Assembly (NCBI GenBank): GCA_001766815.1
Contig: LYOS01000004.1
Coordinates: 163,610-195,609, forward strand
Direction of reading: 5' to 3'
From: Candidatus Syntropharchaeum caldarium
GTDB lineage: Archaea > Halobacteriota > Syntropharchaeia > Syntropharchaeales > Syntropharchaeaceae
DNA length: 32,000 nt
How positions within the stretch are numbered: position 1 is the first letter of the stretch; every line of letters begins with the position of its first letter. Positions 6,648-26,981 of the stretch are shown piece after piece. The translations under genes were made by a program, and so were the position numbers. The notes below the pieces were generated by a model. The model made no database searches and was not told the origin of the DNA. It saw nothing but the letters and a program-made list of their open reading frames with translations.

Positions 6648-6770
6648 TCCTATTATGACCTTCCTGTATATATTGGCTTTCCCTCATAGCAACAGGATGA
6701 AATCGTTAAGTTTAAGTAGAATCCGCCTGAATAATACTTACCTATAACGGCGTGATTAAGGTGGAGGAAG

Positions 6771-7106
6771 ATGATACCAGAACAGATCAATCCACATCTC
6801 TGCACAGGATGCGGAGCGTGTGAACTTGCATGTAGTTTCTACAGGGATGAAGTATTTACGACAATGAGATCGAGTATAATGCTCTTTCGAGAGGAGAAGA
6901 AGAATTACTTTGGGGTTGCTGTCAAGGTAACGGATGATGTAATTGCAGGAGTCCCAACAGGCTCACAACTTGCGAGCGAGCGTGAATCAACCGGTGGAGG
7001 CGGATCTGCGAAGCCCATTCTCATGCGAGAGGAATGTGACGACTGTGGTGGTGGCGACCCGCTCTGTGTTAAATTCTGCCCAACAGGGGCATTGAGAGGT
7101 GAATGA
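6771..7106 (+). CDS. 2x[4Fe-4S] ferredoxin-like subunit with an insertion
   Basis: 111 aa. Contains CTGCGACELAC (CxxCxxCxxxC) and CDDCGGGDPLCVKFCP. Strong SD AAGGTGGAGG upstream. Its stop overlaps the start region of the next gene. Confidence 0.75.
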   Translation: MIPEQINPHLCTGCGACELACSFYRDEVFTTMRSSIMLFREEKKNYFGVAVKVTDDVIAGVPTGSQLASERESTGGGGSAKPILMREECDDCGGGDPLCVKFCPTGALRGE

Positions 7107-8325
7107 GATGGACTATATGTATTCAGGTTTGATCGCTGTAATCGATCTCGAGTCAGAAGAGGTTGAAGAGGTTGAGCTCGAAGAGGATTTCATCAGGGAG
7201 CATCTTGGTGGTGCTTCTGCAAATCTTGCGCTATACGAAGAGTACAGTGAGGATAACCCGATAATTCTTGGAACTGGAATCCTTACGGGATCCCTCGCAT
7301 CGGGATCTTCACTTGGCGTGATGACGGCAAAGAGTCCGCTCACAGGAGAGATCCAGCATGCACCATTTGTATGGTTCACTGGCCCCGAGCTTAAGTTCAC
7401 GGGCTTTGACTTTGTTGTCATAAAGGGCGTGGCAGCTGATCCAGTATATCTGTGGATACATGATGAGATCGTGGATATAAACAGTGCGGGAGATCTCTGG
7501 GGGATGGATACGTGGGGCGTTGTGGATCACATCAGAGATGAGCAGGGTGAGGAGCGAGTTCAGGTGCTTGCCATAGGTGCTGCAGGTGAGAATAAACTTC
7601 CATACGCACAGGTTACCAATAATTACTGGGTAAGCGGTGATTTTGCAGGTTTTGGCGCTATTTTTGGTGAGAAAAATCTCAAAGCGGTTGCATTCAGGGG
7701 TATGGGTGAGGTTGATATCGCAGATCCTGAAGGGTTTGTGGAAAAAGCTGCCAGCTTGCTTGATAGCGCGAAAGCAGATATTGACGGTCGAAAGGGGCCT
7801 GAATGGATTGTAGAAAAGGCCGGGTATGATATCAATGGCATTGAGAGCTTTGTACACCGATATGATGCCTGTTTTAACTGTCCGTATCCCTGTCAGACGT
7901 TTGTGAAGTACAACGAAGATCCCAAAACAATGGATAGAGGTGTTGATGAACCAGGTGTACTCATCACGGAACTTTCTGGACTTTCAACCATTTCACAGAA
8001 GCTATCGATGGAGGAAAGTCTCAGAGCAATCGAGAAATGCGCAAGATTAGGTTTGAATCCTGCTGTAGCTGGGGCACTCATCGATACCCTGGCTGATCTT
8101 GAGACGATCGCATCGAGCGAGGCTGAGATCGGTGGCGTGGCAGGAGGCAGTTTCATACCAGAGATAGGTACAGGAGGTAAGGTCGGGCTTGTACTTGGCA
8201 TATGTCCAGTACTGATGCTTCTTGTTCCAGCAATTGATAAGGCGAGTCTGGTTGAGCTTGTCAATCTCGGCTGTGACTGGGATCTTACTGTTGAGGAACT
8301 TGATGAGGTTGTAGATCGGCTCTGA
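7099..8325 (+). CDS. aldehyde:ferredoxin oxidoreductase (AOR)-family protein, strongly shortened C-terminal domains
   Basis: 408 aa. The first ~200 aa are colinear with the AOR N-terminal domain (GGASANLALY, ILGTGILTGS, GVMTAKSPLTG, GFDFVVIKG, LAIGAAGEN, NLKAVAFRG). It retains the AOR cluster motif CFNCPYPC (CxxCxxxC) and remnants RLGLNPAVAG and VLGICP. Canonical AORs are about 600 aa. The track start is a GTG at 7099. The ATG at 7108 lies 4-5 nt after a GAGAGGTGA SD and is the likelier start. Confidence 0.7.
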   Translation: MNEMDYMYSGLIAVIDLESEEVEEVELEEDFIREHLGGASANLALYEEYSEDNPIILGTGILTGSLASGSSLGVMTAKSPLTGEIQHAPFVWFTGPELKFTGFDFVVIKGVAADPVYLWIHDEIVDINSAGDLWGMDTWGVVDHIRDEQGEERVQVLAIGAAGENKLPYAQVTNNYWVSGDFAGFGAIFGEKNLKAVAFRGMGEVDIADPEGFVEKAASLLDSAKADIDGRKGPEWIVEKAGYDINGIESFVHRYDACFNCPYPCQTFVKYNEDPKTMDRGVDEPGVLITELSGLSTISQKLSMEESLRAIEKCARLGLNPAVAGALIDTLADLETIASSEAEIGGVAGGSFIPEIGTGGKVGLVLGICPVLMLLVPAIDKASLVELVNLGCDWDLTVEELDEVVDRL

Positions 8326-8338
8326 GTCTGATATATCG

Positions 8339-9478
8339 ATGTATCCGCCACGTATAGGTATCTATGTGGGAGAGGGTGCATCCCACTCATGGATCTGGTT
8401 TGTAGATACGCTGGAGCGTGCAGGGATCTTAAACATCGTGTTTCTTGATGAGAGAAACTGGATGGATATGCTCAGAGCGCTGGACATTCTGATGATCGGC
8501 GGTGGTGATCCCTGTACAATCCAGAAAACACTCGGTAATTACGGACTTGGAAGTATTCTTGAGTTCATCGATGGTGGTGGAATTTATATCGGTTCGTGCG
8601 CTGGTGCATATCTTCCCTTGCGATCGTTTGGCAGGTGCTCTTCGATCTTTGGCGTGGTTGAGGCTGATCTTCAAAACCTCTCAGGTGATGGCAGGGTGTT
8701 CCATCCTGTGCGGGGTCCAATCAGGATCAGAATGAGGGATGAGGTCTTTGATGCGCCACTTTATGGTGGTCCGTCGATCGCTGCTTCAGAGGACATAGAT
8801 GTGCTTGCCTCGTATGATGGCTTTACAGAGAGGACGAGCTTTCTCTCAGATAGGTTTGTGGCAGAGGAGAAACTCATCGGTAATGCAGCCATCATCAGAA
8901 AACGATATGGGGAGGGTGTTTTTTACCTCTATGGGCCCCATCTTGAGCATCCTGATCATTTACTGGCAAACAGAGTGATGATAGAAACGATTGCATCAAG
9001 AAGGGGGAGAGAGTCTGGAGCTTTCAAAGAGGTGGAGGGAAATGTCATTGATCAAAGATGGCTTCGTCGCCTCAAAAGAGAGATCAGTAACGCAAGAATT
9101 GTTGCTCACGGGCTTGAAACATATCCCGTGCGGTGGAAGCTTGGATATAAGATCTGGAATCCAGAAAAGATTGCCTACTTCTTGAACGCAATCTGGAAAA
9201 GACTTGGATACATCGAATCAAGAATTGATGAGGGGATCGCGATGGATTCTGATCCTGATGAGTTTATCAACTCTGCCGCCGATGTAACCGCCTCACTCAA
9301 GCAACTCAGAAGGATGCTTGGGCATGGAGAGGATACAACAGAACTTGCAGCAACGCTATTTCACGATCTTAAAATGCTTACATCGAGTTTTCTCCTGATC
9401 TATCTGGAGGATAAAATGCGAAAATTTAAATATGATAAATTAGAGGTGAGAGACGATGGTGAACGAAGTTTATTTTAA
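8339..9478 (+). CDS. class-I glutamine-amidotransferase-like (BPL_N-type) domain protein with unknown C-terminal helical domain
   Basis: 379 aa. The N-terminal ~200 aa read IGIYVGEGASHSW...ILMIGGGDP...FIDGGGIYIGSCAGAYLPL, a nucleophile-elbow Cys in the G-x-C-A-G context. I recognise nothing in the C-terminal ~170 aa. Confidence 0.45.
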   Translation: MYPPRIGIYVGEGASHSWIWFVDTLERAGILNIVFLDERNWMDMLRALDILMIGGGDPCTIQKTLGNYGLGSILEFIDGGGIYIGSCAGAYLPLRSFGRCSSIFGVVEADLQNLSGDGRVFHPVRGPIRIRMRDEVFDAPLYGGPSIAASEDIDVLASYDGFTERTSFLSDRFVAEEKLIGNAAIIRKRYGEGVFYLYGPHLEHPDHLLANRVMIETIASRRGRESGAFKEVEGNVIDQRWLRRLKREISNARIVAHGLETYPVRWKLGYKIWNPEKIAYFLNAIWKRLGYIESRIDEGIAMDSDPDEFINSAADVTASLKQLRRMLGHGEDTTELAATLFHDLKMLTSSFLLIYLEDKMRKFKYDKLEVRDDGERSLF

Positions 9479-10223
9479 TACTTTCCTGGCGTTTCATGTG
9501 ATTGCACTGATCATATTCGCGCTTGGGATATATCTGAAAGTATCAACCTGGACAAAAGGGAATCTTCATGGTATCACGAAGCATAAGGAGATCGCATTTC
9601 TGAAATTAATTTTCGGTATCATCTTCAGCAAGCATATCATTGAGGTGATAAAGATCCTCATCCTTGATGTGATACTCCAGCGAAGGATCTTTCATCAGGA
9701 TAAAGTGAGATGGGTGATGCACACGCTCATCATCATCGGATTTCTTGGGTTGTTACTGATCGTTGAGCCATTTTCAATCATTTTCCATGGCACAGAGTTT
9801 GGTACGATCTATCCACAGGGTATATTCGCTGATTTCTTCGGTTTGCTCCTGCTCATGGGATTATCGATCGCGGTCTTGAGGAGGTTTATCCTGAAAGCAA
9901 AACAACTCAGAAGTAGTCTGGATGATACAATCTCACTCCTGCTTCTTTTTGTTGTTGTTGCAAGTGGATTTATCGTCGAGGCGGTGAGGTTCATCGATAT
10001 CAAGCCCACGATCGATGTGATCTATTCCTTCTTTGGATACTGGCTCTCAGGATTTGTAGCAAGTTCATGGTCGATCTATCACGATGATCTCTGGCTGATT
10101 CATGCGCTGATCTCAAGCGCATTTCTTGCGTATATTCCGTTCAGTAAGTTCTTCCACATAATTGCAACGCCGATCACGATCCTGATCAGTTCCTACGAAG
10201 AAGAGCACGGGAAGGTGATGTAG
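9456..10223 (+). CDS. hdrE: membrane b-type cytochrome of the NarI/HdrE/DsrM family
   Basis: 255 aa with about 5-6 hydrophobic helices. Conserved His in TM helices (VRWVMHTLIIIGF) and the C-terminal IPFSKFFHI motif typical of HdrE/DsrM/HmeC. It sits immediately upstream of, and is translationally coupled to, an HdrD-type gene. The size matches HdrE. The symbol is tentative; this could be a DsrM/Isp1-type paralogue. Confidence 0.65.
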   Translation: MVNEVYFNTFLAFHVIALIIFALGIYLKVSTWTKGNLHGITKHKEIAFLKLIFGIIFSKHIIEVIKILILDVILQRRIFHQDKVRWVMHTLIIIGFLGLLLIVEPFSIIFHGTEFGTIYPQGIFADFFGLLLLMGLSIAVLRRFILKAKQLRSSLDDTISLLLLFVVVASGFIVEAVRFIDIKPTIDVIYSFFGYWLSGFVASSWSIYHDDLWLIHALISSAFLAYIPFSKFFHIIATPITILISSYEEEHGKVM

Positions 10224-11495
10224 GTGAGTAAGCGAGAAAAAGCGATCAGTATCGATACCCTCAGCATGCGGCAACTGATCGAGTTTGATGCATGCACAAG
10301 ATGCGGCGAGTGTCTTGACCTCTGTCCAACATACTCGGTGAGCGAGGAGAACGAGGCGATCACACCACGAGGTAAGATCCAGAGCTTTAAAGATCTCATC
10401 CGATCACAGTACGGCCTGAGGGCGCGCATATTTGGTCCAAAACCGATAAGTCATGAAGATATGGTAAGGATCAGTGAAGCGATTTACATGTGCTCAACAT
10501 GTGGTCAGTGCAGGGTCGTATGTCCGTCAAAGATCGAAACCGTCGAGTTATGGGAGAGTGGATTGCGGCGTTTGCTCGTCAAAGAGGGTGTTGGTCCCCT
10601 GGAAGCACACGATCCCCTGATAAAGAGTATAAATAACTATGATAACCCATGGATGCAGCCACGCACGGCACGTGATAAATGGGCAAAACCACTGCAGAAA
10701 GCAGCAAAGAAGGCAAAACTCCCAAATCCTGTGAAGAACTTTGCAAAGGAAGGGGGAGAAATTCTGTACTTTGTGGGTTGCACAGCATCGTATGACGTGA
10801 ACCTCAAGCAGGTTGCGATAAACACATCAGAAATTCTGAACAAAGCAGGCGTTGACTTCGGGATCTTTGGTACAAAGGAGAAATGCTGTGGAAGCACCCT
10901 ACTTCGAATGGGTGATTGGGAGGGTTTTGAACGACTGGCAAAAGATAACATCGAGTTATTCAAGGAGCATAACGTCAGGACGATCATAACATCCTGTGCG
11001 GGCTGCTTCAAGACGATAAAAGAGGACTATGCACTGGTTGAGAAACTTGATATCAGGGTGATGCATACGGTTGAGCTACTGGAAGAGCTTATCAGGGATG
11101 GTCGGCTGAAGCTCACCGAGCCACTTGAGATGAAAGTCACATACCATGATCCCTGTCATCTTGGACGGCATACCGGTGTCTATGATGCACCAAGAAATGT
11201 TCTTGGGATGGTGCCAGGTATCGAGTTCGTTGAGATGGAGCGAAACAGGGAGAACTCGTACTGCTGTGGTGCGGGCGGTGGGCAGAAGACCGCATTCCCC
11301 GATATCGTGAAGAAGATATCAGAGGTGCGTGTGGATATGGCAGAAACGACCGGAGCATCAGTCATCGCTCATGCCTGTCCCTTCTGCTACCAGGGACTTG
11401 AGGCTGCGGTTAAGTCGAAGGGATCAGCCATTAAGAATATGGATATAACAGAGATCGTGAATATGTCTTCAGGAAAAGAAGAAAATTCCGATTAA
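10224..11495 (+). CDS. hdrD: HdrD/DsrK-type Fe-S protein with two CCG domains
   Basis: 423 aa. Two ferredoxin motifs (CTRCGECLDLCP, CSTCGQCRVVCP). Two CCG domains (VGCTASYD...KCCGS...SCAGCFK and HDPCHLGR...YCCGAGGG...ACPFCYQG). GTG start directly after the hdrE-like TAG, with an AAGGTGA SD. The symbol is tentative. Confidence 0.7.
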   Translation: MSKREKAISIDTLSMRQLIEFDACTRCGECLDLCPTYSVSEENEAITPRGKIQSFKDLIRSQYGLRARIFGPKPISHEDMVRISEAIYMCSTCGQCRVVCPSKIETVELWESGLRRLLVKEGVGPLEAHDPLIKSINNYDNPWMQPRTARDKWAKPLQKAAKKAKLPNPVKNFAKEGGEILYFVGCTASYDVNLKQVAINTSEILNKAGVDFGIFGTKEKCCGSTLLRMGDWEGFERLAKDNIELFKEHNVRTIITSCAGCFKTIKEDYALVEKLDIRVMHTVELLEELIRDGRLKLTEPLEMKVTYHDPCHLGRHTGVYDAPRNVLGMVPGIEFVEMERNRENSYCCGAGGGQKTAFPDIVKKISEVRVDMAETTGASVIAHACPFCYQGLEAAVKSKGSAIKNMDITEIVNMSSGKEENSD

Positions 11496-11502
11496 ACAAG
11501 AG

Positions 11503-12345
11503 GTGATTGGTTTGGTAGAGTATAATCCGGATATAGCATGGGAAGTTCCGAGCGATCCTTCATTGAAGGAGTTTCTGGAGCCGACTGAGTATAGCGATAT
11601 GGACAACCCACTTGTGAGGGATCTTGCATTGAGTATGGCAAGGAACGCCAGGCATCCGCGTGAGGTGGCGGTGAAGGTATGGAACTACATTGTTGATGAG
11701 ATAAAGTGGTGTTATGAACCCCCAAAACCTGTTCTGAAGGTGATTCAGGAGAAGTCGGGTAACTGTTTCAACAGGACAAACCTCCATGCATCCCTCCTTC
11801 GTATAAATGGTATTCCCGCAAGATACACGTATGAACAGGTCTACTCAAAGTTTGCAGGTATCGCGATCCCACCGAGCATCATTGAGCGATTGCCTGTTAA
11901 TGCTATAGTGCATATCACGCCCGAGGTTTACATCGACGGGAGATGGATCCAGTGCGATCAGTGGGCAGATCGTGACCTCATACCATATCTCTATCAGTGG
12001 AACGGTGTGGATGATCTCTGCGCACTTCCACCCGACTATGTATGGAAGAACCTTGGATACAGTCCTGGAATTCTCCTTGAGCCATTAAAAGCACAGTTCA
12101 AGAATGCAGGAATCACAAAGAAGTTCAGTCTCGAGAACGTCGATCCTTACACTGATTTTGTGCGAAGCCTGCCCTATGGAGAGAAAGTGAATTTATATGA
12201 AGGAATTCTTGGCAAAGAATACGCGGATAACTTTGCTCGCTATCTCTATATGAAGGCTGTGCCATTCAGAGAGACCGAATGCCCGGATATAAAGCCATCT
12301 GAGCCGAGCAGGCTTCCAATACAGGATAGCATCATACCAAGATGA
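11503..12345 (+). CDS. transglutaminase-like cysteine protease-fold protein
   Basis: 280 aa. Catalytic-Cys context SGNCFNRTNLHASLLRINGIPARY, then HITPEVYIDGRWIQCD (His/Asp of the transglutaminase core). The start is ambiguous: GTG at 11503 lies inside the SD, and TTG at 11512 lies 5 nt after GAGGTGA. Confidence 0.6.
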   Translation: MIGLVEYNPDIAWEVPSDPSLKEFLEPTEYSDMDNPLVRDLALSMARNARHPREVAVKVWNYIVDEIKWCYEPPKPVLKVIQEKSGNCFNRTNLHASLLRINGIPARYTYEQVYSKFAGIAIPPSIIERLPVNAIVHITPEVYIDGRWIQCDQWADRDLIPYLYQWNGVDDLCALPPDYVWKNLGYSPGILLEPLKAQFKNAGITKKFSLENVDPYTDFVRSLPYGEKVNLYEGILGKEYADNFARYLYMKAVPFRETECPDIKPSEPSRLPIQDSIIPR

Positions 12346-12361
12346 AGAGGCGATAGTAAGA

Positions 12362-13003
12362 ATGAGTGATCTAAGTAACCGTCTGAAGATTTATCTCCTT
12401 GAAGAAGGAGCAGACCTTGTCGGCATCACCTCGGCTGATAGCTTTGAGAGCGCACTTGAGGGCTGTAAACCCACCGATATCCTGGAAGATGCAAGGAGTG
12501 TGATCACGATGGCAGTTAGTGTGAATGCAGCAGGTGTCGAGAAAGCTAAGGCAATGGCTGCCTGGCGTGGAAAAGTTTTTCCGCTGGATGAGCTTGCGTT
12601 CAAGGCATCCCGTCTCCTATTCAGGGAGGGTTACAAGGCGATAGTCGTTCCCTCAGCCACGCACTCCGCCTTTCAGGCGCTCAAAGGAGAGATTTCGCAC
12701 AAGCATGCAGCCGTGATGTCAGGACTTGGGTGCATTGGCAAGTGCAGTCTGCTTGTAACACCAAGGTTTGGCACGAGAGTTGCACTGATATCTGTTATAA
12801 CCGACGCCATGCTCACGCCAGATGAGGCGTTCGAGGGTGACCTCTGTGGAGACTGCAGCGTCTGCATCGATGTCTGCCCTGTGGAGGGGACGATCAATGA
12901 GGAGAAGAAGGACGGTTACTACATGATCATGAAGGCACAGTGCGTGAAGTGTTATAAGTGCTACACGAGCTGTCCTGTTGGGATGGATGAGGTTGGACAC
13001 TGA
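12362..13003 (+). CDS. QueG/reductive-dehalogenase-like Fe-S protein (short form)
   Basis: 213 aa. The N-terminus LEEGADLVGITSADSFE resembles epoxyqueuosine-reductase-family N-termini. The C-terminus has CGDCSVCIDVCP and CVKCYKCYTSCP 4Fe-4S motifs. Confidence 0.5.
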   Translation: MSDLSNRLKIYLLEEGADLVGITSADSFESALEGCKPTDILEDARSVITMAVSVNAAGVEKAKAMAAWRGKVFPLDELAFKASRLLFREGYKAIVVPSATHSAFQALKGEISHKHAAVMSGLGCIGKCSLLVTPRFGTRVALISVITDAMLTPDEAFEGDLCGDCSVCIDVCPVEGTINEEKKDGYYMIMKAQCVKCYKCYTSCPVGMDEVGH

Positions 13004-13009: not shown

Positions 13010-13056
13010 TTTTTTAATTAAATATACGTATGAAAGGGGTTAAAATAAAACCCCTT
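13010..13056. terminator. bidirectional terminator candidate between convergent genes
   Basis: T6 run at 13010-13015 just after the plus-strand stop. Hairpin AAGGGGTT (13034-13041) / AACCCCTT (13049-13056) with a 7-nt A-rich loop. The right arm overlaps the CBS gene stop. Confidence 0.4.
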
Positions 13057-13679: not shown

Positions 13680-14069
13680 CTATTTATGGCACTCACTATC
13701 CATACATCCCAAATCGCTGTGTCCTACTCCTCCCTTATCGGGGTGAACATTCGTATCCACACCCGAACCATGGCATTGTGTGCAACTTTCTACATACTGC
13801 GATATGTGATCCTCTTTATCTGCATGGCACTTTATACAGTTTGCCCAGTGACCTGATGGCTCAGCAGCCCCTGGGGTTACGGTTGGTGTTACTGTTGGTG
13901 CTGGTGTAGGAGTTGGGGTTGGAGCTGGTGGCGCCTCCTCCCCGAGACATCCTGCCATGAGCACAAGTGATACCACAATGGTTGCGATGATCAGTCTCCT
14001 CATAGCTTCACCTCTCTGTATGCAGCATCCATCTTCGTTGCGATATTTTTTTGTCATATTAGATCCCAT
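13680..14069 (-). CDS. small tri-haem c-type cytochrome, lipoprotein-type signal
   Basis: Two CxxCH motifs (CIKCH, CTQCH) and one CxxxxCH (CMDSECH) within about 55 residues, plus four further His as candidate distal ligands. Signal MRRLIIATIVVSLVLMAGC has a lipobox-like LMAGC, followed by the Pro/Thr linker APPAPTPTPTPAPTVTPTVTP. There are two candidate starts. ATG 14069 has leaderless-type spacing from a TATA box and conserved first codons. ATG 14003 lies 5 nt after a GAGGTGA SD and would give 108 aa. Confidence 0.75.
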   Translation of the reverse strand: MGSNMTKKYRNEDGCCIQRGEAMRRLIIATIVVSLVLMAGCLGEEAPPAPTPTPTPAPTVTPTVTPGAAEPSGHWANCIKCHADKEDHISQYVESCTQCHGSGVDTNVHPDKGGVGHSDLGCMDSECHK

Positions 14070-14249: not shown

Positions 14250-15317
14250 ATGATGAATTCAAGACATATCACGATAGCCCACGGCGCTGGCGGAGAGACG
14301 ATGCAGGAATTGATTAAAGGCACCATTCTGAGGTATCTCAGCGATCAGAAACAGGCAAAAAAGGTTGCTGTTCCCCTGGAAGCACTGGATGACTCTGCAG
14401 TTATAGACGATATTGTCTTCACGATAGATTCGCATACTGTTACACCGTTGTTTTTTCCTGGTGGTGATATTGGGAGCCTGGCTGTGAGTGGAACGATAAA
14501 CGACATCGCAGTAATGGGTGCTGAGCCAATTGCTTTATCGTCTGCTTTTGTCATCGAAGAAGGCTTTCTTTTTGATAAACTGGAAAAGATTTTAGAAAGT
14601 ATGTGCAGAACATGTGTGCAGGCTGGTGTTCCGATAATCACGGGTGACACAAAGGTGATGGAGAGTGGTGCTATTGAGAAGTTGACAATCACAACTTCTG
14701 CAATTGGAAGAAGAACTGAAATATTAGAGGAAAACCTGAGTGAAGTTAAAAAGTACAGAAAATTAAACGAGAGATGGGTGAGAGACTGCAATCTGAAAGA
14801 TGGAGATAGAATAATTGTTTCTGGGACGATTGGGGATCATGGGATCTCTTTAATCTCTTTCAGAGAGGGGTACGGTTTTGAGAGCGAAGTTCAATCAGAT
14901 ATCACGCCTCTGAACAGGATGATTGAAGAGGCACTGAAGGTGGGTGGTATCGTCTCGATGAAAGACCCAACAAGAGGAGGGCTGGCGAATGCGTTGAACG
15001 AACTGAGCGAAAAATCGAGTGTTGGAATTTTGATAGAAGAAGAGAAAGTTCCGATAAGAGAAGCTGTTAGATCGGCATGTGAGATGCTGGGGATGGATGC
15101 GTTGGAGATAGGAAATGAGGGAAAGGTTGTGATGGGTGTGGTAAAAGAAAAGGCAGAAGAGGTTTTAAAGTCATTGAGAAAGACAGAAGAAGGGAAGGAT
15201 GCAGAAATTATAGGCGTTGCAACGAAAAAAATCAAAGGTGTGGTGATGGAAACGAGTGTTGGTGGGAAAAGGATAGTAGAGGCGCCTGCTGGAGATCCTG
15301 TGCCGAGGATATGCTAA
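14250..15317 (+). CDS. hypE: hydrogenase maturation protein HypE (carbamoyl dehydratase)
   Basis: 355 aa with a PurM/AIR-synthase-like fold signature (HGAGG, DDSAV, TGDTKV). The C-terminus ends in the diagnostic PRIC motif. Confidence 0.92.
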   Translation: MMNSRHITIAHGAGGETMQELIKGTILRYLSDQKQAKKVAVPLEALDDSAVIDDIVFTIDSHTVTPLFFPGGDIGSLAVSGTINDIAVMGAEPIALSSAFVIEEGFLFDKLEKILESMCRTCVQAGVPIITGDTKVMESGAIEKLTITTSAIGRRTEILEENLSEVKKYRKLNERWVRDCNLKDGDRIIVSGTIGDHGISLISFREGYGFESEVQSDITPLNRMIEEALKVGGIVSMKDPTRGGLANALNELSEKSSVGILIEEEKVPIREAVRSACEMLGMDALEIGNEGKVVMGVVKEKAEEVLKSLRKTEEGKDAEIIGVATKKIKGVVMETSVGGKRIVEAPAGDPVPRIC

Positions 15318-16387
15318 CGTCCATGCCTCAACAGTATATTACAACTCCCTTCTCTGGATACCATACAGGGTCCAACAGGATGCTGAGGTGTGCAGGCTCC
15401 TCCAAAAAGTGGACACTCATCAGAATAGATGATTCCTCGCAGAACTTCTCCGCATTTGCACCCCTCTGGCTCTTTAAACTCTCTTTGCTGCAGTTCTTTT
15501 AACTCATCCTCAAATCGTTTTCTTGAATCGTATCTCTCAAATTCCTCTTTTAACGAGAAGCCACTCTCTGGTATAACAGAAAAACCTCTCCAGCCAAGAT
15601 CACTTTGCCTGAAAACCTCGTCCATCACCTTCAGTGCTTTCTTATTTCCTTCCTCTTTAACCACTCTTGTGTATTCATTTTCCACCCTTGCTTCGCCATT
15701 TTTTATCTGCCTGGCGATCATGTACACGCCCATTAACAGATCCAGTGGCTCAAATCCAGCGATTACCTGTGGAACGTTGAATTTTTGAGAGATGAGCTCA
15801 TAAGGCTTTGTTCCTATGATCGTACTCACATGCCCAGGGTCTATGAAACCATCGATCTTCAGCTCGCCCATTTTGAGCAGGACTTCCATCGCGGGTGGGA
15901 TTGCCCTGTGGCATGTCAAAACAGAGAAATTTTCGGGCGGGTTGTTTAGGATGGTAGAGGCAGTGGACGGAGCAGTGGTCTCAAATCCTATCGCCATGAA
16001 CACAAGATCTTTCTCTATCTTTTTTGCGATCTCGATGCTCTCATTTATGCTGTACACCGTTCTTATGTCACAACCCTCTGCTTTTGCATCAAAAAGCGAG
16101 CCATTCTCGCCTGGAACACGCAGCATGTCTCCAAAGGTTGCTATCGTCTTCCCTTTCATCGCTAAAGTAATCGCTTCATCAATCTCCATAGGTGTTGTAA
16201 CACAGACCGGACAACCCGGTCCCTGTCTGATCTCAACACCAGCATCACACAAGAGATCACTCAGTCCAAACCTGACCAGTGTGTCCTGATGTGTGCCACA
16301 GACATGCATGATCCTGATCTCCAGATTGAGCTCTTTCAATCGCTCTAAAATCCTTTTTGCGATATCTTTCTCCCGGTATCTAAACAT
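15314..16387 (-). CDS. hypD: hydrogenase maturation protein HypD
   Basis: 357 aa. HVCGTHQD, GPGCPVCVT, GFETTAP and DPGHVS motifs, and C-terminal CxxH-type cysteines. Its stop overlaps the hypE stop on the opposite strand. Confidence 0.92.
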   Translation of the reverse strand: MFRYREKDIAKRILERLKELNLEIRIMHVCGTHQDTLVRFGLSDLLCDAGVEIRQGPGCPVCVTTPMEIDEAITLAMKGKTIATFGDMLRVPGENGSLFDAKAEGCDIRTVYSINESIEIAKKIEKDLVFMAIGFETTAPSTASTILNNPPENFSVLTCHRAIPPAMEVLLKMGELKIDGFIDPGHVSTIIGTKPYELISQKFNVPQVIAGFEPLDLLMGVYMIARQIKNGEARVENEYTRVVKEEGNKKALKVMDEVFRQSDLGWRGFSVIPESGFSLKEEFERYDSRKRFEDELKELQQREFKEPEGCKCGEVLRGIIYSDECPLFGGACTPQHPVGPCMVSREGSCNILLRHGR

Positions 16388-16390
16388 CTA

Positions 16391-16765
16391 TCAACCCTCT
16401 ACCTCTACCACAATATTCTTTATTTTACACTCGTTTCCACCAACTATTTTAACGGAGGCACCACATGCTGGACATGTTAGCTTTGGGAAGATGTGAAGCG
16501 ATAAATCCTTTTCGTAATCAATTTCACCCTCATATTCACAGCTATTACAGCTAACCATGGCCTTCTTCTCTTCGATGATCAGTTCAGATCTCTCTAATAT
16601 AGAATTTCTGGATAAGACCTCATAGGCGAACTCCATCTGCTCTCTTCCGAAAAGCGTAAGCTCCCCTATCTCCAGGTGAACTTCTTTCACATCAGTTACA
16701 CTGTGCTTTTTCACCTCTTCCAATACAACATCCACAATTTGTGCCATTGTTGAAAATTCGTGCAT
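16391..16765 (-). CDS. hypA: hydrogenase nickel-insertion protein HypA
   Basis: The canonical N-terminus MHEFS (the Met1-His2-Glu3 Ni site) begins at ATG 16765. Zn-finger motifs CNSC...CPAC. The track ORF extends to a GTG at 16789, adding eight residues that would destroy the N-terminal Ni site. Confidence 0.85.
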   Translation of the reverse strand: MHEFSTMAQIVDVVLEEVKKHSVTDVKEVHLEIGELTLFGREQMEFAYEVLSRNSILERSELIIEEKKAMVSCNSCEYEGEIDYEKDLSLHIFPKLTCPACGASVKIVGGNECKIKNIVVEVEG

Positions 16766-16807
16766 GTTCACGCTACGGGTCGAAAACACCCGGTATTCCC
16801 ATCATAT

Positions 16808-17047
16808 TCAAAACTCCTCCCTTAAAACACCAACTCGATCCTCCAAAAGATCTCTCCACAGATCTAAAGTCTCCTTTGCCCCCTCTTCATCGATCACCTC
16901 TATCGCAAAACCAGCATGGACGATTACGTATTCCCCGGGTTTAACATCAACCAGTGATACGTTAACAGTCTGTAAAACCCCCCCAAAATCCACTCTCGCA
17001 TCGTTACCATCGATCTCCACGACTTTTCCTGGAACCGCAAGGCACAT
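16808..17047 (-). CDS. hypC: hydrogenase assembly chaperone HypC/HupF family
   Basis: 79 aa with the diagnostic N-terminus MCLAVPGKVVEI (essential Cys2). Confidence 0.92.
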   Translation of the reverse strand: MCLAVPGKVVEIDGNDARVDFGGVLQTVNVSLVDVKPGEYVIVHAGFAIEVIDEEGAKETLDLWRDLLEDRVGVLREEF

Positions 17048-17077
17048 AAATAAACCTCCATCCTGTCTGTTATATAT

Positions 17078-19273
17078 TTAACGTTCTAATCTCACACCAG
17101 CAACCGCATTCTGTCCAATGGATATTCCGCCATCCCCATTTGGAACTTGATCGTGCGTCAAAAATTCAAGACCACCATCTTCTACGAACTTCTCCACGAT
17201 CTTCACAATCGGTACATTATACGAAACACCGCCCGTGATACCAATATATCTAATCCCATTCGCATTGGCATTCTCAATTGCAACTTCTGTCATCTTCTTG
17301 AGCAAAGCATAAACGAAAGAATATGCCAGATCAGCTTTCCTGGACTTATCTGGATATTCGGATAACTGATCAAACAATGGAAGCGTTCTAACGATTTTAT
17401 CGTCTACCACTTCTGTTTCAAAATCAATTTTCCTCTCTCCTGCATTCAGATACCGCTCAAGTCTCATCGCGGGTTCCCCATCGTACGTCCTTTTAATTCC
17501 AATATCCAGATAACATGATAGTGCATCCAGAACCCGACCAAAGCTACTCGTTGTGGGGCTTTTCTTCATCAAATTTCTCAAAATATCCGTCTCTTTCTCT
17601 TCAAAATAACCTGAATTCTTCCCCAGCATCTCAAAAATCGCAAAAACAATTCTTCTTGGATCTCTGGTGGCTGCATCTCCTCCAATAAGTGGAATCTGCT
17701 CCAAATGCCCTATTCTCTCAAAAGAATCAAAAGAAGAGATCAGAATCTCTCCACCCCAGATACTTCCATCTGTGCCATATCCTGCCCCATCCAGCGTTAG
17801 AGCGATAATTGGTTCTTCTACCCCATTGTCAACCATCAAAGAGACAGCATGAGCCCAGTGATGCTGCACTTCAAATATTTCAGCAGAAAATCTTTCGGTC
17901 AGATCTCTTCCAAAGTGTCTGGTCAGATATCTTGGATGCAGATCAATGCCAATCCCGCTGATCTCTTTTATGTCCAGTAGATTTATCAGATGATCAGTGG
18001 CTGAGGCTAAAAATTCTAATGAGGGATAATAGCTTGTGTTCCCGATGTACTGTGTTATGTAGAGTTCCCCATCTGTTGAAACGCTCACAGAGACGTTTTT
18101 CTCTGCACCAACGCCTATCACGTTTTTTCTATGTGGAACTTTGATTTTATGCGGCACAAAACCCCTCGATCTTCTCAAAAAGAATTTTTTATCATTGTAA
18201 AAACGTATAACCGAATCATCAACTCTGTTTAATATTTCCCTGTTGTGCAGAAGATATACATCCACATTTAAGTTAAACGCATCTTCATTTCTGGTTATCA
18301 TCGGCTCTCCAGGCAGATTTGCAGAGGTCATTATTATGCCATCGCTCTTTAGATAGTGAAAAAAGATATGGTGAAGGGCTGTGTAAGGCAGATAAATTCC
18401 AGCGGTGTCAAGTCCAGGCGAGATGCCATCTAAAACCCCAAACTTATCTTCACTTTTCTTCAAAACAACTACTGGACGCTGGGGGGATCTCAAAGCCTCC
18501 TCTTCATGCTCCCCAATGTACACATACTCACTTGCAGTTTCCAGGTCTCTCATCATAACTGCAAAAGGCTTTGCCTCCCTCCTGTACCATTCTCTGAATC
18601 TTCCCACCTCCTCAAAGTTACAGACCAGGTGCATTCCACCCCAGCTCTTCATTATACCAGTTGCTCCATCATCTATGAACTTTGCAAATGTTTTAATCGG
18701 ATTGCCCTCAATAGCATTTTTCTCTTCATCATAGAGCATGTATTTTGGACCGCACTCTGGACAGGAGATTGTTTGGGCGTGAAATCTCCGATTTAAAGGA
18801 TCTCTGTATTCTTCTTTGCAATTCCTGCACAGGGAAAACTCGCTCATAGAGGTCTTCTCTCTGTCGTATGGCACATCTTTAATCAGAGAGAAGCGTGCAC
18901 CGCAGTTTGTGCAATTTGTGAATGGATAGAGATAACGGCGATTGCCTCTGTCAAATATCTCGTCAAGGCATTCATCACATGTCGCAGTATCTGGTGGAAC
19001 GAGGGAAGATTTTACACCTTCACTGCTTTCCAGGATTACAAAACCTTCATACTTTCCCTGCTCTTCTTTCAATGATATCTCGTCTATCGAGGCGTTATCA
19101 GGGATCTCTCTTCTTAGTGCCTTTAAGAACTCATCTTCTCTTTTATCAAGAAAGATCTCTACATTCGAGCCTTTGTTCAGTACATATCCATTTATCCCCA
19201 GTGAATTCGCAACTCTGTATACAGTAGGACGAAAACCAACTCCCTGTACTGTGCCCTTAACGAAAACCTTCAT
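17078..19273 (-). CDS. hypF: carbamoyltransferase HypF
   Basis: 731 aa. Acylphosphatase-like N-terminus (VKGTVQGVGFRPTVY). Two zinc-finger pairs (CDECLDEI...NCTNCGARF; CRNCKEEY...CPECGPKY). YrdC-like and Kae1-like C-terminal halves. Confidence 0.93.
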   Translation of the reverse strand: MKVFVKGTVQGVGFRPTVYRVANSLGINGYVLNKGSNVEIFLDKREDEFLKALRREIPDNASIDEISLKEEQGKYEGFVILESSEGVKSSLVPPDTATCDECLDEIFDRGNRRYLYPFTNCTNCGARFSLIKDVPYDREKTSMSEFSLCRNCKEEYRDPLNRRFHAQTISCPECGPKYMLYDEEKNAIEGNPIKTFAKFIDDGATGIMKSWGGMHLVCNFEEVGRFREWYRREAKPFAVMMRDLETASEYVYIGEHEEEALRSPQRPVVVLKKSEDKFGVLDGISPGLDTAGIYLPYTALHHIFFHYLKSDGIIMTSANLPGEPMITRNEDAFNLNVDVYLLHNREILNRVDDSVIRFYNDKKFFLRRSRGFVPHKIKVPHRKNVIGVGAEKNVSVSVSTDGELYITQYIGNTSYYPSLEFLASATDHLINLLDIKEISGIGIDLHPRYLTRHFGRDLTERFSAEIFEVQHHWAHAVSLMVDNGVEEPIIALTLDGAGYGTDGSIWGGEILISSFDSFERIGHLEQIPLIGGDAATRDPRRIVFAIFEMLGKNSGYFEEKETDILRNLMKKSPTTSSFGRVLDALSCYLDIGIKRTYDGEPAMRLERYLNAGERKIDFETEVVDDKIVRTLPLFDQLSEYPDKSRKADLAYSFVYALLKKMTEVAIENANANGIRYIGITGGVSYNVPIVKIVEKFVEDGGLEFLTHDQVPNGDGGISIGQNAVAGVRLER

Positions 19274-19938
19274 CTGTCCCCCTCGATCAACGCAGATAAC
19301 AGCTCTTCCACTCCGGTGCCGTGTTTCGCATCGGTCATAAAGAACTTTCCATGAGGGGACAGTCTTTTGAAATCCTCTAAAATAACAGCAGGGTCAACCT
19401 CAATTAGCTCTGCCAGATCGATCTTGTTCAATACAACAAAATCGGTTTGTGCAAAGATCAACGGGTGTTTTCTTACCATGTCATCACCCTCGGTCACCGA
19501 TATAACGACAACTCTTTTCTCAGTTCCTAAAGGAAAATCAACAGGACAAACGAGATTTCCAACGTTTTCAATGAATAATATCTCCAATTTACTGAGATCT
19601 AATGATTCTAAGGCATGATTTATTAAATGGGCATCTAAATGGCATTCTTTCCCAGTATTTACATTTATAGCCTGAACCCCAAGTCTTAAAAACCTTTTAT
19701 AATCGTCATCTCCTGCGACATCCCCCGCTATGGTCCCAGCTCTCATCCCTCTTTCACTCAGCAGATCTATCATCCTCTCGATCAGCGTGGTTTTTCCAGA
19801 CCCTATAGACCCTAAAATGTCGTATGCTTTTACCTCGTGACTTTCCAATACAGACCTGTTCTCCTTCGCAATTCTTCTGTTTACACCAAGAATATCGCTT
19901 TCCATCTGTATATCCACGGTCTTATGCATATGTATCAC
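19270..19938 (-). CDS. hypB: hydrogenase nickel-incorporation GTPase HypB
   Basis: 222 aa. P-loop GSIGSGKTTLIE, IENVGNLVCP and LNKIDL motifs. No His-rich N-terminus. ATGA overlap with hypF. Confidence 0.9.
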   Translation of the reverse strand: MIHMHKTVDIQMESDILGVNRRIAKENRSVLESHEVKAYDILGSIGSGKTTLIERMIDLLSERGMRAGTIAGDVAGDDDYKRFLRLGVQAINVNTGKECHLDAHLINHALESLDLSKLEILFIENVGNLVCPVDFPLGTEKRVVVISVTEGDDMVRKHPLIFAQTDFVVLNKIDLAELIEVDPAVILEDFKRLSPHGKFFMTDAKHGTGVEELLSALIEGDR

Positions 19939-20425
19939 AATAATATAGATCTTGCACTGAATTTAAGCGTGATAATTCATCAAGTATTCGCCTGACAACC
20001 TCTGGAATTGTTTTTTCCACCTCTGGTGTTAATCCGATGCCGAATTCATCACTTTTTTCAACCTCAATCCCCACAATCGTGATATCATCTGGCATCGATT
20101 CTGGCATAATCGTCTCTCCTATCCTGAGCACATCGACCAGTCCAAGATCGTGAAGTGAGAAGTTAACAGATTCTGGTTCTGGCAGATCATTGCCCTTAAT
20201 GATATGGATCGTTCCGATATCACCACCGGTCCTCACAGCATCGACAATGATGATCTTCTCCGCGTCTTCGATCAGGTTCAGGATTGAAAGCCCACCAGTA
20301 CCCGCATCGACCAATTCCACATAATCGGGCAACTCCTCCTTCCTGAGTTCCTCTAAAACGTAGATTCCAATGCCATCATCTAAAGCCAGAGGGTTTCCAC
20401 AGCACAGGATCAGAACTTTTTTCAA
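19922..20425 (-). CDS. [NiFe]-hydrogenase maturation endopeptidase (HyaD/HybD/VhoD family)
   Basis: 167 aa. N-terminal LILCCGNPLALDDGIG motif (GN-x4-DDG-x-G). Positioned directly after the large subunit. Confidence 0.85.
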   Translation of the reverse strand: MKKVLILCCGNPLALDDGIGIYVLEELRKEELPDYVELVDAGTGGLSILNLIEDAEKIIIVDAVRTGGDIGTIHIIKGNDLPEPESVNFSLHDLGLVDVLRIGETIMPESMPDDITIVGIEVEKSDEFGIGLTPEVEKTIPEVVRRILDELSRLNSVQDLYYCDTYA

Positions 20426-20431
20426 TTTATC

Positions 20432-21985
20432 TTAAACCACCTTGACCTCGTACTTCTTTCTGCTATCCCTCAGGTCCACTGTATGCACGGCACATGCTAT
20501 ACATGGATCGAACGAGCGGACGGTATGCAGGATCTCAATCGGATTGTCTGGAGCAGTTACTGGTGTACCAACTACAGCCTGTTCAACAGCCCCCAGCTTG
20601 CCATCATCATCACGTGGCGAGCAATTCCATGTTGTTGGGACTACGAGCTGGTATCTCTCCAGTTTACCATCTTTTATACTTGCCCAATGCCCCAGTGATC
20701 CTCTGGGTGCCTCTGTCAAGCCTACCCCGGTTGCTGAACTCGGCAGTTCTGCAGGCTCATAGAACTTCCCATCTATGTCAACACCAAGAAGCCATTCCTT
20801 CAGTTTGGCGAGAACCCTCACAGCCTCATGAAGTCTCGCCAGTGTTCTTGTGTACACATTTGCACCAAGTTTGGTAGCCAGGTCAAGAACCAGGGGGTCT
20901 CTGTCATTGATCATTCTTGCCAGTGGACCCACCTCTGTGGGCATGTCATTATATCGTGGAGCCTTCATCCAGGTATACTTATCTTTGCTCGTGAAGTCTG
21001 GATCCTCAATTGGTTCTGTGAACCCCTCGTTAGGATGCTTTCCACCAGTATAGCCACTATACCATGAATACGCTATGTACTCAGTTACTTTTTCTGGATC
21101 AAAGGCATTGAAGTCTCCATCATAAAATCCGGGCTTCAACCATCTCCCATCCCCCTCATAAAATGCGCCATATGAGAGGAATCCACACTCACCTGCCCCG
21201 TACCCACCATATGCATGAAGTCCGAGGTTGATATCTTCAATCGGGCCCCCATATCGAATCAAAAGACCTATATCGCTATTTGCATGGCTTTCGCTTTCGT
21301 CTAACCAGGCCACCACATCATCCAGGCTCCTGTTCTCCAACCACCGATCAACGGAGCACCCAAGTACCTGTTCTTCTACGAAGCTCTTACTCTCTAACCA
21401 CAGTGAATATGCTTTAACAATGTCTCCAACGTCAGGCCTAACTGTAACTCCGCCAGGTATATACGTCATGTGATGGGGCATCTTCCCACCGAAGATGGCT
21501 ATGATCTCGTGGAGCTTTTTTCTGACCATAACTGCCCTGATCCATGAGCTACCTGTAAACGCAGCAAATCTACGGCTAAGTTCATTATATACACTGCCGG
21601 CCCCCGCCGCCTCTAAAATGTCTTTGTATACAGGATTTGCCAGATCTGGTGCCCATAATGCATAAAAGTGTGTTGCATGACTCATTATATTATTGGAGCC
21701 CAATATGATGTTCCTGATCAGTTTCGCATTTTCTGGCACAGAAGCATCAAATGCATCATCCAGACACCGTATCGATGCTGTGGCATGCGCTACTGGACAG
21801 ACTCCACATGCTCTTTGAGTTATGATAGAAGCATCTCTTGGATCCCTTCCTATCAGTATGTTCTCCAGTCCCCTGTACATCATGCCAGAACTCCATGCAT
21901 CCGTTACTTTTCCCCCATCTACATTTGCTCTGATCTTTAAATGCCCTTCAATTCGTGTTAACGGATCGATGGTCACTTCTACCAT
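20432..21985 (-). CDS. [NiFe]-hydrogenase large subunit (group 1-like, membrane/extracytoplasmic uptake type)
   Basis: 517 aa. N-terminal RIEGH. Ni-Fe ligand motifs QRACGVCPVAH and C-terminal DPCIACAVH, followed by a 16-aa extension (TVDLRDSRKKYEVKVV) of the kind removed by the endopeptidase. It pairs with a Tat-signal small subunit. Confidence 0.92.
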   Translation of the reverse strand: MVEVTIDPLTRIEGHLKIRANVDGGKVTDAWSSGMMYRGLENILIGRDPRDASIITQRACGVCPVAHATASIRCLDDAFDASVPENAKLIRNIILGSNNIMSHATHFYALWAPDLANPVYKDILEAAGAGSVYNELSRRFAAFTGSSWIRAVMVRKKLHEIIAIFGGKMPHHMTYIPGGVTVRPDVGDIVKAYSLWLESKSFVEEQVLGCSVDRWLENRSLDDVVAWLDESESHANSDIGLLIRYGGPIEDINLGLHAYGGYGAGECGFLSYGAFYEGDGRWLKPGFYDGDFNAFDPEKVTEYIAYSWYSGYTGGKHPNEGFTEPIEDPDFTSKDKYTWMKAPRYNDMPTEVGPLARMINDRDPLVLDLATKLGANVYTRTLARLHEAVRVLAKLKEWLLGVDIDGKFYEPAELPSSATGVGLTEAPRGSLGHWASIKDGKLERYQLVVPTTWNCSPRDDDGKLGAVEQAVVGTPVTAPDNPIEILHTVRSFDPCIACAVHTVDLRDSRKKYEVKVV

Positions 21986-21987
21986 TT

Positions 21988-23175: not shown

Positions 23176-23319
23176 TTAAATCCCCCCAAAGTATCCAGAG
23201 TTGTGGCTGATCCCGGCCGTCTCCATTGTCTCGAACGCGATAGCAGTCCTGCTGAACGTACGCCTCGACAGTTCAACATCATCAAATAAATTATACTTTT
23301 CAGTCACATTTGACCCCAT
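23176..23319 (-). CDS. 47-codon upstream ORF / leader peptide preceding the hydrogenase small subunit (hypothetical)
   Basis: My translation is MGSNVTEKYNLFDDVELSRRTFSRTAIAFETMETAGISHNSGYFGGI*. The TAA at 23178-23176 abuts the small-subunit ATG (23175) in the same frame. A TATA-like octamer lies 22-29 nt upstream of its ATG. The first nine codons are shared with the cytochrome c ORF, differing mainly by synonymous changes. It is too short for the supplied ORF track. Confidence 0.45.
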   Translation of the reverse strand: MGSNVTEKYNLFDDVELSRRTFSRTAIAFETMETAGISHNSGYFGGI

Positions 23320-26976: not shown

Positions 26977-26981
26977 CCTCT

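Follow-up and report, generated by a model that had tools for sequence, protein, structure and literature searches.

The question raised by this locus is what a tightly packed run of seven genes does in the archaeon Candidatus Syntropharchaeum caldarium, and how many of the seven belong to one system. The genes, here called g1 to g7 (Table 1), occupy positions 6771-13003 of a 32,000-nucleotide stretch of contig LYOS01000004.1 (hereafter the window). An initial annotation of the window had described a ferredoxin, a short protein of the AOR family (mini-AOR), a class-I glutamine amidotransferase (GATase1)-like protein, an HdrE/HdrD-like pair, a transglutaminase-like protein and a QueG-like protein, and had not recognised the combination as a module. 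We read seven open reading frames from the sequence, all on the + strand, with coordinates and junctions as it had given them (-8, +13, -23, 0, +7 and +16 nt from g1 to g7 in order). The reading frames and junctions bear out a tightly packed, co-directional gene set, and domain searches showed the seven family assignments to be essentially right. We lean, with moderate confidence, toward a single operon in three layers (g1 with g2; g3; g4 with g5), in which a soluble catalytic head is joined to an Hdr-type electron module.

Conservation of the g1-g5 gene set

Relatives of g3 were found in 256 species-representative genomes. We scored synteny with the seven window proteins on the best-scoring 80 of these 256 g3-relative loci, most of them from Desulfobacterota, and the counts take in only loci with enough flanking sequence to judge. 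We found g1 and g2 upstream of g3 at 55 of 63 loci and g4 and g5 downstream of g3 at 47 of 51. All five genes, on the same strand and in the same order, were present at 40 of 46 loci. There were eight loci at which g4 directly follows g3, as in the window, and a Desulfobacterium metagenome-assembled genome (MAG; locus L027) carries the same contiguous five genes. At 40 loci, extra genes are present between g3 and the HdrD-like gene, encoding a multihaem cytochrome c, a cytochrome b561 and a cytochrome-c::NarI fusion. A multihaem cytochrome c is present at 40 of the 48 judged loci that have g4 downstream. The set beside the trio g1-g3 in these bacteria, two multihaem cytochromes c and a cytochrome b561, is Tmc-like, and the inserted cytochrome genes would make a Tmc/Hmc-like transmembrane complex. 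Other genes that recur next to the bacterial clusters encode a GntR/FCD regulator, a GlcD-like FAD oxidase with its own CCG protein, a methylmalonate-semialdehyde-type aldehyde dehydrogenase and an SsuA-family ABC transporter.

The GlcD-like oxidase was detected in 45 of the 80 bacterial loci. The pair of oxidase and CCG protein lies beside the trio or beside a stand-alone g3 at L021 (1745-7460), L089 (5851-8624) and L084 (5168-9948), accompanied by the GntR/FCD regulator and aldehyde dehydrogenase in bacteria and by Ldh and LarA in one Halobacteriota contig. This recurrence hints at a link to 2-hydroxyacid metabolism. Downstream of the cluster in L021 (15807-18428) there is an ABC transporter whose binding protein passes the cutoff for the SsuA (aliphatic sulfonate) family and whose ATPase is SaoA-like; homologues of this transporter are present in 32-36 of the 80 loci.

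The arrangements in archaea are more varied. In a methanogen-type archaeon (L089/L090), genes for GlcD-like, CCG, ferredoxin, mini-AOR and BPL_N proteins are followed by genes for HdrC-like, HdrB, HdrA and MvhD proteins, an Fe-S protein and a molybdopterin (Fdh-like) protein. In Hydrothermarchaeota (L041), the ferredoxin and mini-AOR genes face a divergent cytochrome b/HdrD pair, and g3 comes directly after an HdrA::MvhD fusion and a 4xCCG protein. In Methanomassiliicoccales and other Halobacteriota, the ferredoxin and mini-AOR pair occurs alone, and one unclustered g3 homologue from Halobacteriota adjoins genes for GlcD-like, CCG, Ldh and LarA proteins. Given these archaeal arrangements, ferredoxin plus mini-AOR is the tightest unit, g3 tracks Hdr-type CCG proteins, and the electron module is exchangeable. 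What stays constant beside the differing Hdr-type modules is the trio g1-g3. The g1-g5 set of the window is the cytochrome-c-free archaeal form of a module conserved in Desulfobacterota and several archaeal phyla.

We found no published description of the g1-g3 trio or of its linkage to Hdr in the literature, in keeping with the initial annotation's view of the combination. The module is not mentioned in a classification of WOR enzymes (PMC13328260), which does not cover short AORs, or in a comparative-genomics paper on ANME (anaerobic methanotrophic) archaea. It is likewise not mentioned in a Desulfobacterium genome paper, which gives only TmcBCA clusters.

Proteins of the operon

The g1 protein has two [4Fe-4S] motifs, CTGCGACELAC and CDDCGGGDPLCVKFCP, and matches Fer4, Fer4_9 and Fer4_7 of Pfam. 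A g1-type ferredoxin gene lies directly upstream of every g2 homologue inspected. The g2 protein is a full match to the Pfam family AFOR_N (171 bits, 3.6e-50, model positions 3-198 of 199) and a partial one to AFOR_C (model positions 61-139 only). Its residues 7-213 align with 9mqx and 1aor, and the domain 1 fold of the AOR/WOR family is present. An AlphaFold2 model of g2 (pLDDT 92) matched 1aor, 9mqx and BamB (4z3w) with TM scores of 0.80-0.82 by query length and 0.55 by target length, which indicates that g2 is a trimmed AOR containing more than domain 1 alone. Compared with a full-length AOR reading frame from locus L071, about 25 residues are gone from domain 2 and about 130 from domain 3, as are the last ~70; at 405 amino acids (aa), against ~600 aa for a full-length AOR, g2 is without about 200 residues of domains 2 and 3. 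The CxxCxxxC motif, the G-L/I-D motif and the G-I-C segment are retained. Two conserved Arg of full-length AORs, which we take to be the pterin-phosphate binders of the P. furiosus AOR structure, are replaced (SSRF by SSLG, and AARGG by SGDFA with an invariant Asp). The earlier picture of the mini-AOR as simply a soluble aldehyde oxidoreductase does not survive these losses.

We aligned 74 g2 sequences, the window's included. Residues H84, R143, E161, W174, D178 and H250 are essentially invariant across the alignment. The invariant His, His, Asp and Glu occupy the sequence positions of conserved residues in full-length AORs that presumably bind pterin, and they suggest a remodelled ligand or metal site. 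The g2 protein of the window has the full set of [4Fe-4S] Cys (C255, C258, C262 and C366). These four Cys are complete in nine of the 74 aligned sequences (the window's among them), nearly all archaeal, and the homologues from Desulfobacterota mostly have CTTH or DTTQ at the cluster Cys positions. Classical aldehyde oxidation is unlikely, since most bacterial mini-AORs have no cluster of their own and the determinants for pterin have disappeared. The g2 protein is a remodelled AOR that has probably lost the pterin, and g1 and g2 would together form an AOR-type heterodimer that is widespread and sometimes occurs alone.

The g3 protein matches BPL_N of Pfam and has a nucleophile elbow (GSCAGAY) and a His-Glu pair (GPHLEHP; GPHxEHP in the family). 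The triad Cys87-His201-Glu203 is invariant in 30 homologues. Residue 117 is Asp in the window's protein, versus a second conserved Cys in 29 of the 30 homologues (consensus YGC). In the AlphaFold2 model (pLDDT 88), an N-terminal class-I glutaminase-subunit fold is followed by a long helical C-terminal domain. The top Foldseek match was PdxT (2nv2; E 1.7e-8, TM to target 0.73-0.75), and further matches to PDB structures were PdxT/YaaE, HisH and the glutaminase subunit of GuaA. A profile search matched no curated family (PdxT: E 0.004, 17 bits versus a cutoff of 105). A g3 homologue was directly beside an Hdr-type CCG protein in every clustered locus examined. The intact triad and this constant position suggest that an amide is hydrolysed or transferred in a step coupled with chemistry in or close to the CCG site.

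The g4 protein matches Nitrate_red_gam of Pfam (4.5e-9), with weak matches to QmoC, TmcC and DsrM, and has several hydrophobic segments; a PDB sequence search gave no solved relative. Three His, not four, are conserved in 62 homologues (H89, H216 and H234), as are R85, W86, R143, E175, R178 and K231. The g5 protein has two complete CCG domains (Pfam CCG x2, 126 bits, 6.7e-37) and a Fer4_8 match. Its motifs are two copies of CxxCxxCxxxCP (CTRCGECLDLCP and CSTCGQCRVVCP), two CCG triplets, CAGC and CPFC. The feature set of HdrD, two [4Fe-4S] ferredoxin motifs and two complete CCG domains, is present. In NCBIfam, g5 matched TmcB (4e-42) and DsrK (5e-26), both below the cutoffs, and its best PDB relative was 9ojn, a 1042-aa 'iron-sulfur-binding reductase', far ahead of HdrB. 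In two Desulfobacteraceae-type MAGs (L022, 2446-3933; L027, 11956-13431), the g5 homologue is split into a ferredoxin-like part and a CCG part. We considered selenocysteine in these two homologues and rejected it: the in-frame stops are TAA inside an insertion of about 50 residues.

It seems unlikely that g4 and g5 are the organism's hdrED genes, as the initial annotation had contemplated. The g5 protein is 49-53% identical to cluster-linked proteins of Desulfobacterota and Hydrothermarchaeota, and its best match among 1.84 billion representative proteins has 52% identity. The top relatives that have names are called '(Fe-S)-binding protein' or 'Fe-S oxidoreductase', and near-identical proteins in a Methanosarcinales MAG are annotated as hypothetical. 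Many g5 relatives carry the JGI KO-based label 'heterodisulfide reductase subunit D', which is uninformative because it is given to Nitrososphaerales proteins too. No use of the heterodisulfide of coenzymes M and B (CoM-S-S-CoB) is known in Desulfobacterota. Identity comparison did not place g5 with a methanogen HdrD limited to users of CoM and CoB; its nearest relatives are those of Desulfobacterota and Hydrothermarchaeota. Because g5 is as close to bacterial cluster-linked proteins as to anything known, g4-g5 is not demonstrably a canonical hdrED. The pair would belong to a cluster-specific clade of a broad cytochrome b/HdrD-like family, HdrED-like rather than hdrED proper, and canonical hdrED is likely elsewhere in the host genome.

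The last two genes have a different history. The g6 protein matches Transglut_core of Pfam (58 bits versus a cutoff of 23) and gave no match in a PDB sequence search. A Cys, a His and an Asp are invariant in five sequences (NCFN, I-H-x3-E and WIQxD) and were assigned as the triad by inspection. We detected only four relatives of g6 in 5.8 billion clustered proteins. The g7 protein has a QueG/RDH core plus two CxxCxxCxxxCP motifs and scores 50 bits against TIGR00276 (QueG), versus a cutoff of 200. Residues 108-180 alone align with QueG (5d08), and at 213 aa, versus ~340-440 aa for full-length QueG, g7 falls outside that family. Neither g6 nor g7 occurs at any of the 80 genome loci or in any other archaeal context examined. 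Conservation of gene order in relatives, which the initial annotation had proposed as a check, holds for g1-g5 and fails for g6 and g7, which accompany the cluster in the sister organism only. The order there is g4-g5-g6-g6'-g7, followed by a convergent CBS gene. The claim that all seven genes are one conserved unit does not hold up, given the four relatives of g6 and the presence of g6 and g7 homologues (70% and 65% identical) in unrelated contexts. From their distribution, g6 and g7 are recent add-ons at the 3' end of the operon.

The extra copy in the sister organism (L100, 2202-3888; L101, 944-2435) is a tandem duplicate of g6 that shares 62% identity with g6 of the window. The stand-alone homologue with 70% identity to g6 (L097, 3657-7550; L098, 1879-5772) lies between secE and a convergent gene pair, whose products are an HdrB-like CCG protein and an HdrA-like protein carrying an MvhD domain. 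This context is possibly a second, weak link of the transglutaminase-like family to Hdr genes.

Operon layout and neighbouring genes

Two starts probably differ from those of the longest reading frames. The g2 reading frame opens at GTG 7099, and an in-frame ATG at 7108 stands 6 nt after GAGGTGA; a start at this ATG gives a protein of the length stated above and a g1/g2 junction of +1. The gene caller on an identical Logan contig also picked ATG 7108, which is probably the true start. The true start of g6 is probably TTG 11512, after GAGGTGAT, giving 277 aa and a g5/g6 junction of +16. Shine-Dalgarno sequences had been noted at most genes as GAGGTGA-type, and we found GGAGG- or GAGGTGA-type sequences ahead of six of the seven, g1, g2, g4, g5, g6 and g7. 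Reading the upstream sequences of all seven genes gave no Shine-Dalgarno of either type upstream of g3. We calculated ratios of nonsynonymous to synonymous substitution rates (dN/dS) against the sister organism (75-95% amino-acid identity) for six genes, with g3 left out. The values were 0.07-0.26 for g1, g2, g4, g5, g6 and g7 (0.07 for g1 and 0.10 for g7), and this purifying selection indicates that the six are real genes.

Table 1. Genes and candidate transcript signals of the operon, with coordinates in the window
Feature	Position	Strand	Description
Candidate archaeal TATA-like box TTTAAGTA	6711-6718	+	53 nt upstream of the g1 ATG, in a 123-nt divergent intergenic region; putative role
g1	6771-7106	+	Ferredoxin-like, 111 aa
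g2	7108-8325 (reading frame from GTG 7099)	+	Trimmed AOR-family protein ('mini-AOR'), 405 aa
g3	8339-9478	+	BPL_N / class-I glutamine-amidotransferase-fold protein, 379 aa
Exact TATA-like box TTTAAATA	9425-9432	+	In the 3'-terminal part of g3; the g4 ATG follows 24 nt later
g4	9456-10223	+	NarI/HdrE/DsrM/TmcC-type membrane cytochrome b, 255 aa; 23-nt overlap with g3
g5	10224-11495	+	HdrD/TmcB-type iron-sulfur protein, 423 aa
g6	11503-12345	+	Transglut_core Cys-protease-fold protein; likely start TTG 11512
g7	12362-13003	+	Fe-S protein with QueG/RdhA-like core segment, 213 aa
Candidate archaeal oligo-T terminator (T6 run)	13010-13015	+	Starts 7 nt past the stop of g7; a convergent CBS-domain gene comes next; putative role

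A scan for sigma-70 promoters and intrinsic terminators gave counts below the shuffled expectation, and these models do not apply to an archaeon; we used counts of oligo-T and TATA patterns in their place. Runs of five or more T are rarer inside the operon, where 4 occur in 6.2 kb (0.64 per kb); the window as a whole has 1.84 per kb. The TATA-like box within g3 falls exactly on the evolutionary module boundary between g1-g3 and g4-g7. Since this pattern gave one match where about three are expected by chance (an estimate from base composition), the box is at most a candidate internal promoter. Overall, the layout suggests that the seven genes form one operon and are co-transcribed.

The genes on either side are unrelated to those of the operon. 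Upstream there are genes for OMP decarboxylase, an FAD protein, PGK, ThiC and a divergent TPR protein. Downstream there are genes for a convergent CBS protein and a small c-type cytochrome, followed by hyp genes and a [NiFe] hydrogenase. The cytochrome gene (13680-14069, - strand) lies about 700 nt past the operon on the opposite strand. Its product has no Pfam match and contains a lipobox-like LMAGC, a Pro/Thr-rich linker and the haem motifs CIKCH, CTQCH and a CX4CH-like CMDSECH. The hydrogenase island (14250-25497) contains hypE, hypD, hypA and hypF, genes for a hypB-like GTPase and a HycI protease, genes for the large and small [NiFe] hydrogenase subunits and a gene for a 662-aa polyferredoxin with an MvhD/FlpD domain. 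Farther on (25906-28860), two reading frames without Pfam matches (356 and 347 aa) flank a gene for an AAA_5 (MoxR/dynein-like) ATPase.

Competing explanations and related systems

In the arrangement that we favor, the soluble trio g1-g3 would be the cytoplasmic catalytic head, and the Hdr-type partner would be interchangeable wiring that sets where the electrons go. The membrane form in the window (g4-g5) would link the head to a methanophenazine or menaquinone pool, and in the Tmc-like bacterial form the connection would be to multihaem cytochromes of the periplasm. Soluble HdrABC-MvhD takes the partner's place in two archaeal lineages. Electrons in this operon may leave the membrane pool through the haems of g4, reach g5 (cubane and CCG clusters), continue over the pair of clusters in g1 and arrive at the [4Fe-4S] cluster of g2; the reverse course would also be possible. 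Two places come into question for substrate binding, the CCG site of g5 and the former pterin pocket of g2 in its remodelled state. If class II benzoyl-CoA reductase (BamBC-BamDEF) is taken as the model, the g2/g1 pair may hold the substrate site. The task of g3 would be to cleave an amide (a glutamine-type one, or a thiol compound in amide linkage) and so deliver or remove an amino or acyl group.

A more specific proposal, which we regard as tentative and less likely than not, is that the trio and the CCG protein are an unrecognised Hdr-coupled enzyme, in which a tungsten-free AOR relic and a glutaminase-type Cys hydrolase have a joint new active site. Its reaction would join amide or ammonia transfer to low-potential redox chemistry. 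Such an enzyme would plug into membrane, periplasmic-cytochrome or flavin-bifurcating modules, and its hosts would be Desulfobacterota, Methanosarcinales, Hydrothermarchaeota and other anaerobes.

Several observations weigh against a single head-and-wiring complex. The physical association of the five proteins is suggested by gene order alone. Because the 80 loci that we scored were the top scorers among 256, conservation may look higher than it is. The closest homologues of g3 (46-47% identity) and g2 (52-54%) in other Halobacteriota are unclustered, and the parts can therefore evidently work separately. Because most bacterial mini-AORs are without the [4Fe-4S] Cys, the electron path through g2 is not universal. 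The part played by g2 may be that of a binding or scaffold protein and not a redox one. Finally, the TATA-like box at the end of g3 could split the transcript before g4.

One competing proposal is that of the initial annotation, in which all seven genes are one obligate unit acting on a thiol/disulfide or amide-linked cofactor or carrier, with g3, g6 and g7 serving a CCG disulfide reductase. All seven reading frames are tightly coupled, every gene tested is under purifying selection, the order from g4 to g7 is retained in the sister organism, and Cys-based catalytic residues are retained in both g3 and g6. In addition, a GATase1 gene and a lipoamide carrier system occur together in sHdr clusters (PMC6067878). 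The proposal nevertheless seems improbable to us, given the absence of g6 and g7 from 80 of 80 genome loci and all other archaeal contexts, the sparse g6 family, and the location elsewhere of close homologues of both; domain searches of the operon proteins also found no LbpA-, GcvH- or DsrC-type carrier. The part of it that ties amide or thiol chemistry to a CCG protein has a published parallel in lipX (PMC6067878, PMC10332631); the unit that is conserved, however, comprises five genes and not seven. It is quite unlikely that g4-g5 is simply a canonical HdrED, a methanophenazine-dependent CoM-S-S-CoB reductase, with the other genes as unrelated co-transcribed neighbours. In its favor, the host belongs to Methanosarcinales, the HdrD domains are all present in g5, g4 is NarI/HdrE-like, and many relatives bear the JGI label. 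That label, however, is shared with Nitrososphaerales proteins, and g5 is no closer to its best match in the representative library than to Desulfobacterota proteins. The g3-g4-g5 and g1-g5 synteny is also seen in dozens of members of Desulfobacterota, a group with no known use of CoM or CoB, and g3 overlaps g4 by 23 nt.

The remaining explanations give the trio another task. In one, which we consider rather doubtful, it is an aldehyde- or 2-hydroxyacid-linked oxidising module that passes electrons through the Hdr-type module to the membrane pool, the aldehyde possibly coming from an imported organosulfonate or hydroxy-acid and g3 being DJ-1-like or thiohemiacetal-forming. The neighbours in Desulfobacterota (GlcD-like FAD oxidase with CCG protein, GntR/FCD regulator and methylmalonate-semialdehyde-type aldehyde dehydrogenase) would fit this task, as would the binding protein that passes the curated SsuA-family cutoff, the GlcD/CCG pair by the trio in L089 and by the stand-alone g3 homologue with Ldh and LarA in L084, and the derivation of g2 from aldehyde oxidoreductases. 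None of these accessory genes is in the window, however, and g2 is without much of domains 2 and 3 and without the two Arg that bind the pterin phosphates in the P. furiosus AOR structure. Most bacterial g2 proteins also are without the [4Fe-4S] ligands, which makes classical W-pterin aldehyde oxidation unlikely, and the fold of g3 is nearest to glutaminase subunits, not DJ-1. We give very little credence to the idea that g2 and g3 are not energy-metabolic enzymes but factors in the maturation or assembly of a cofactor, the non-cubane clusters or another, in adjacent CCG proteins. Canonical HdrDE and HdrABC are, as far as is generally known, not in need of such factors; the dedicated ferredoxin-like subunit and the stoichiometric-looking translational coupling better fit a structural subunit, and the many invariant polar residues of g2 suggest a specific ligand site. 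What speaks for such factors is that g3 is always by a CCG protein, whatever the type of complex, that g2 is without typical catalytic determinants and often without its own cluster, and that the GATase1 gene lipX is among the cofactor-maturation genes of sHdr clusters (PMC10332631).

Read as a soluble head with exchangeable electron wiring, the operon combines old and new elements. All of the component families, and the principle of modular Hdr/Tmc/Bam-type complexes, are already known; the catalytic head and its recurrent pairing with Hdr-type modules are new. In methanogens, methanotrophs and sulfate reducers, energy conservation depends centrally on CCG complexes of the Hdr, Tmc and DsrMK types, many of which have no assigned cytoplasmic partner reaction. 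The g1-g5 module is a defined candidate for such a partner, with relatives in at least 256 species genomes. Its members are annotated only as 'hypothetical', 'BPL-N domain' or 'AOR N-terminal domain' proteins, and the recurrent gene order is a concrete reason to treat them as one system. An hdrED-looking pair in a Methanosarcinales or ANME-type genome should not automatically be taken as heterodisulfide reductase in metabolic reconstructions. Genetic work may be feasible in bacterial isolates with the Tmc-linked form, which is present in a MAG assigned to Desulfomonile tiedjei. If the unrecognised Hdr-coupled enzyme is real, it would be a missing piece of anaerobic energy or cofactor metabolism.

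Among known systems, class II benzoyl-CoA reductase (BamBCDEFGHI) has an AOR-like/ferredoxin pair that works with HdrABC/MvhD-like electron modules. The window resembles it in that an AOR-family large subunit and a ferredoxin-like small subunit are encoded beside modules of this kind; BamB is among the best structural and sequence matches of g2, and the L089 and L041 versions (trio plus HdrCBA-MvhD) share the same logic. In contrast to Bam, g2 is about 200 residues shorter, with much of domains 2 and 3 gone and the two conserved Arg replaced, there is a GATase-like subunit, and the window uses a membrane cytochrome b/HdrD pair instead of soluble HdrA-type bifurcation. Class II benzoyl-CoA reductase is placed among the class IV WORs (PMC13328260).

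Like HdrDE of Methanosarcina, the window has adjacent genes for a NarI-type b cytochrome and a protein with 2x[4Fe-4S] and two CCG domains, and the host belongs to the same order. The window pair differs in being embedded in a larger operon, in having orthologues clustered with g1-g3 in Desulfobacterota, and in that g5 is no closer to anything else than to those orthologues. TmcABCD, HmcA-F and DsrMK(JOP) likewise combine a cytochrome b (TmcC/DsrM type) with a cytoplasmic CCG protein (TmcB/DsrK type), and the bacterial form of the cluster adds multihaem cytochromes c. The window operon, however, is without a cytochrome c subunit, and a cytoplasmic head of AOR-like, ferredoxin-like and GATase-like proteins is in none of the known complexes.

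The class V WOR of E. coli, YdhV (ydhYVWXUT), has AOR-family and ferredoxin-like subunits and a membrane subunit, and its role is unknown (PMC13328260). It shares with the window an AOR-family protein with ferredoxin-like subunits tied to a membrane subunit. YdhV-type proteins are, however, full-length pterin enzymes of one WOR clade, with membrane partners that are not of NarI/HdrD type and with no GATase-like subunit. In sHdr-LbpA clusters, an Hdr-like CCG system is linked to lipX, a putative glutamine amidotransferase gene of unknown role (PMC6067878, PMC10332631). The window shares the joining of an Hdr-like CCG system to a class-I glutamine-amidotransferase-like gene, with g3 and LipX compared at the level of fold only, and differs in having no lbpA, lipoate-ligase, radical-SAM or sulfur-transferase genes. 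We found no published parallel other than lipX for the linkage of g3 to CCG proteins.

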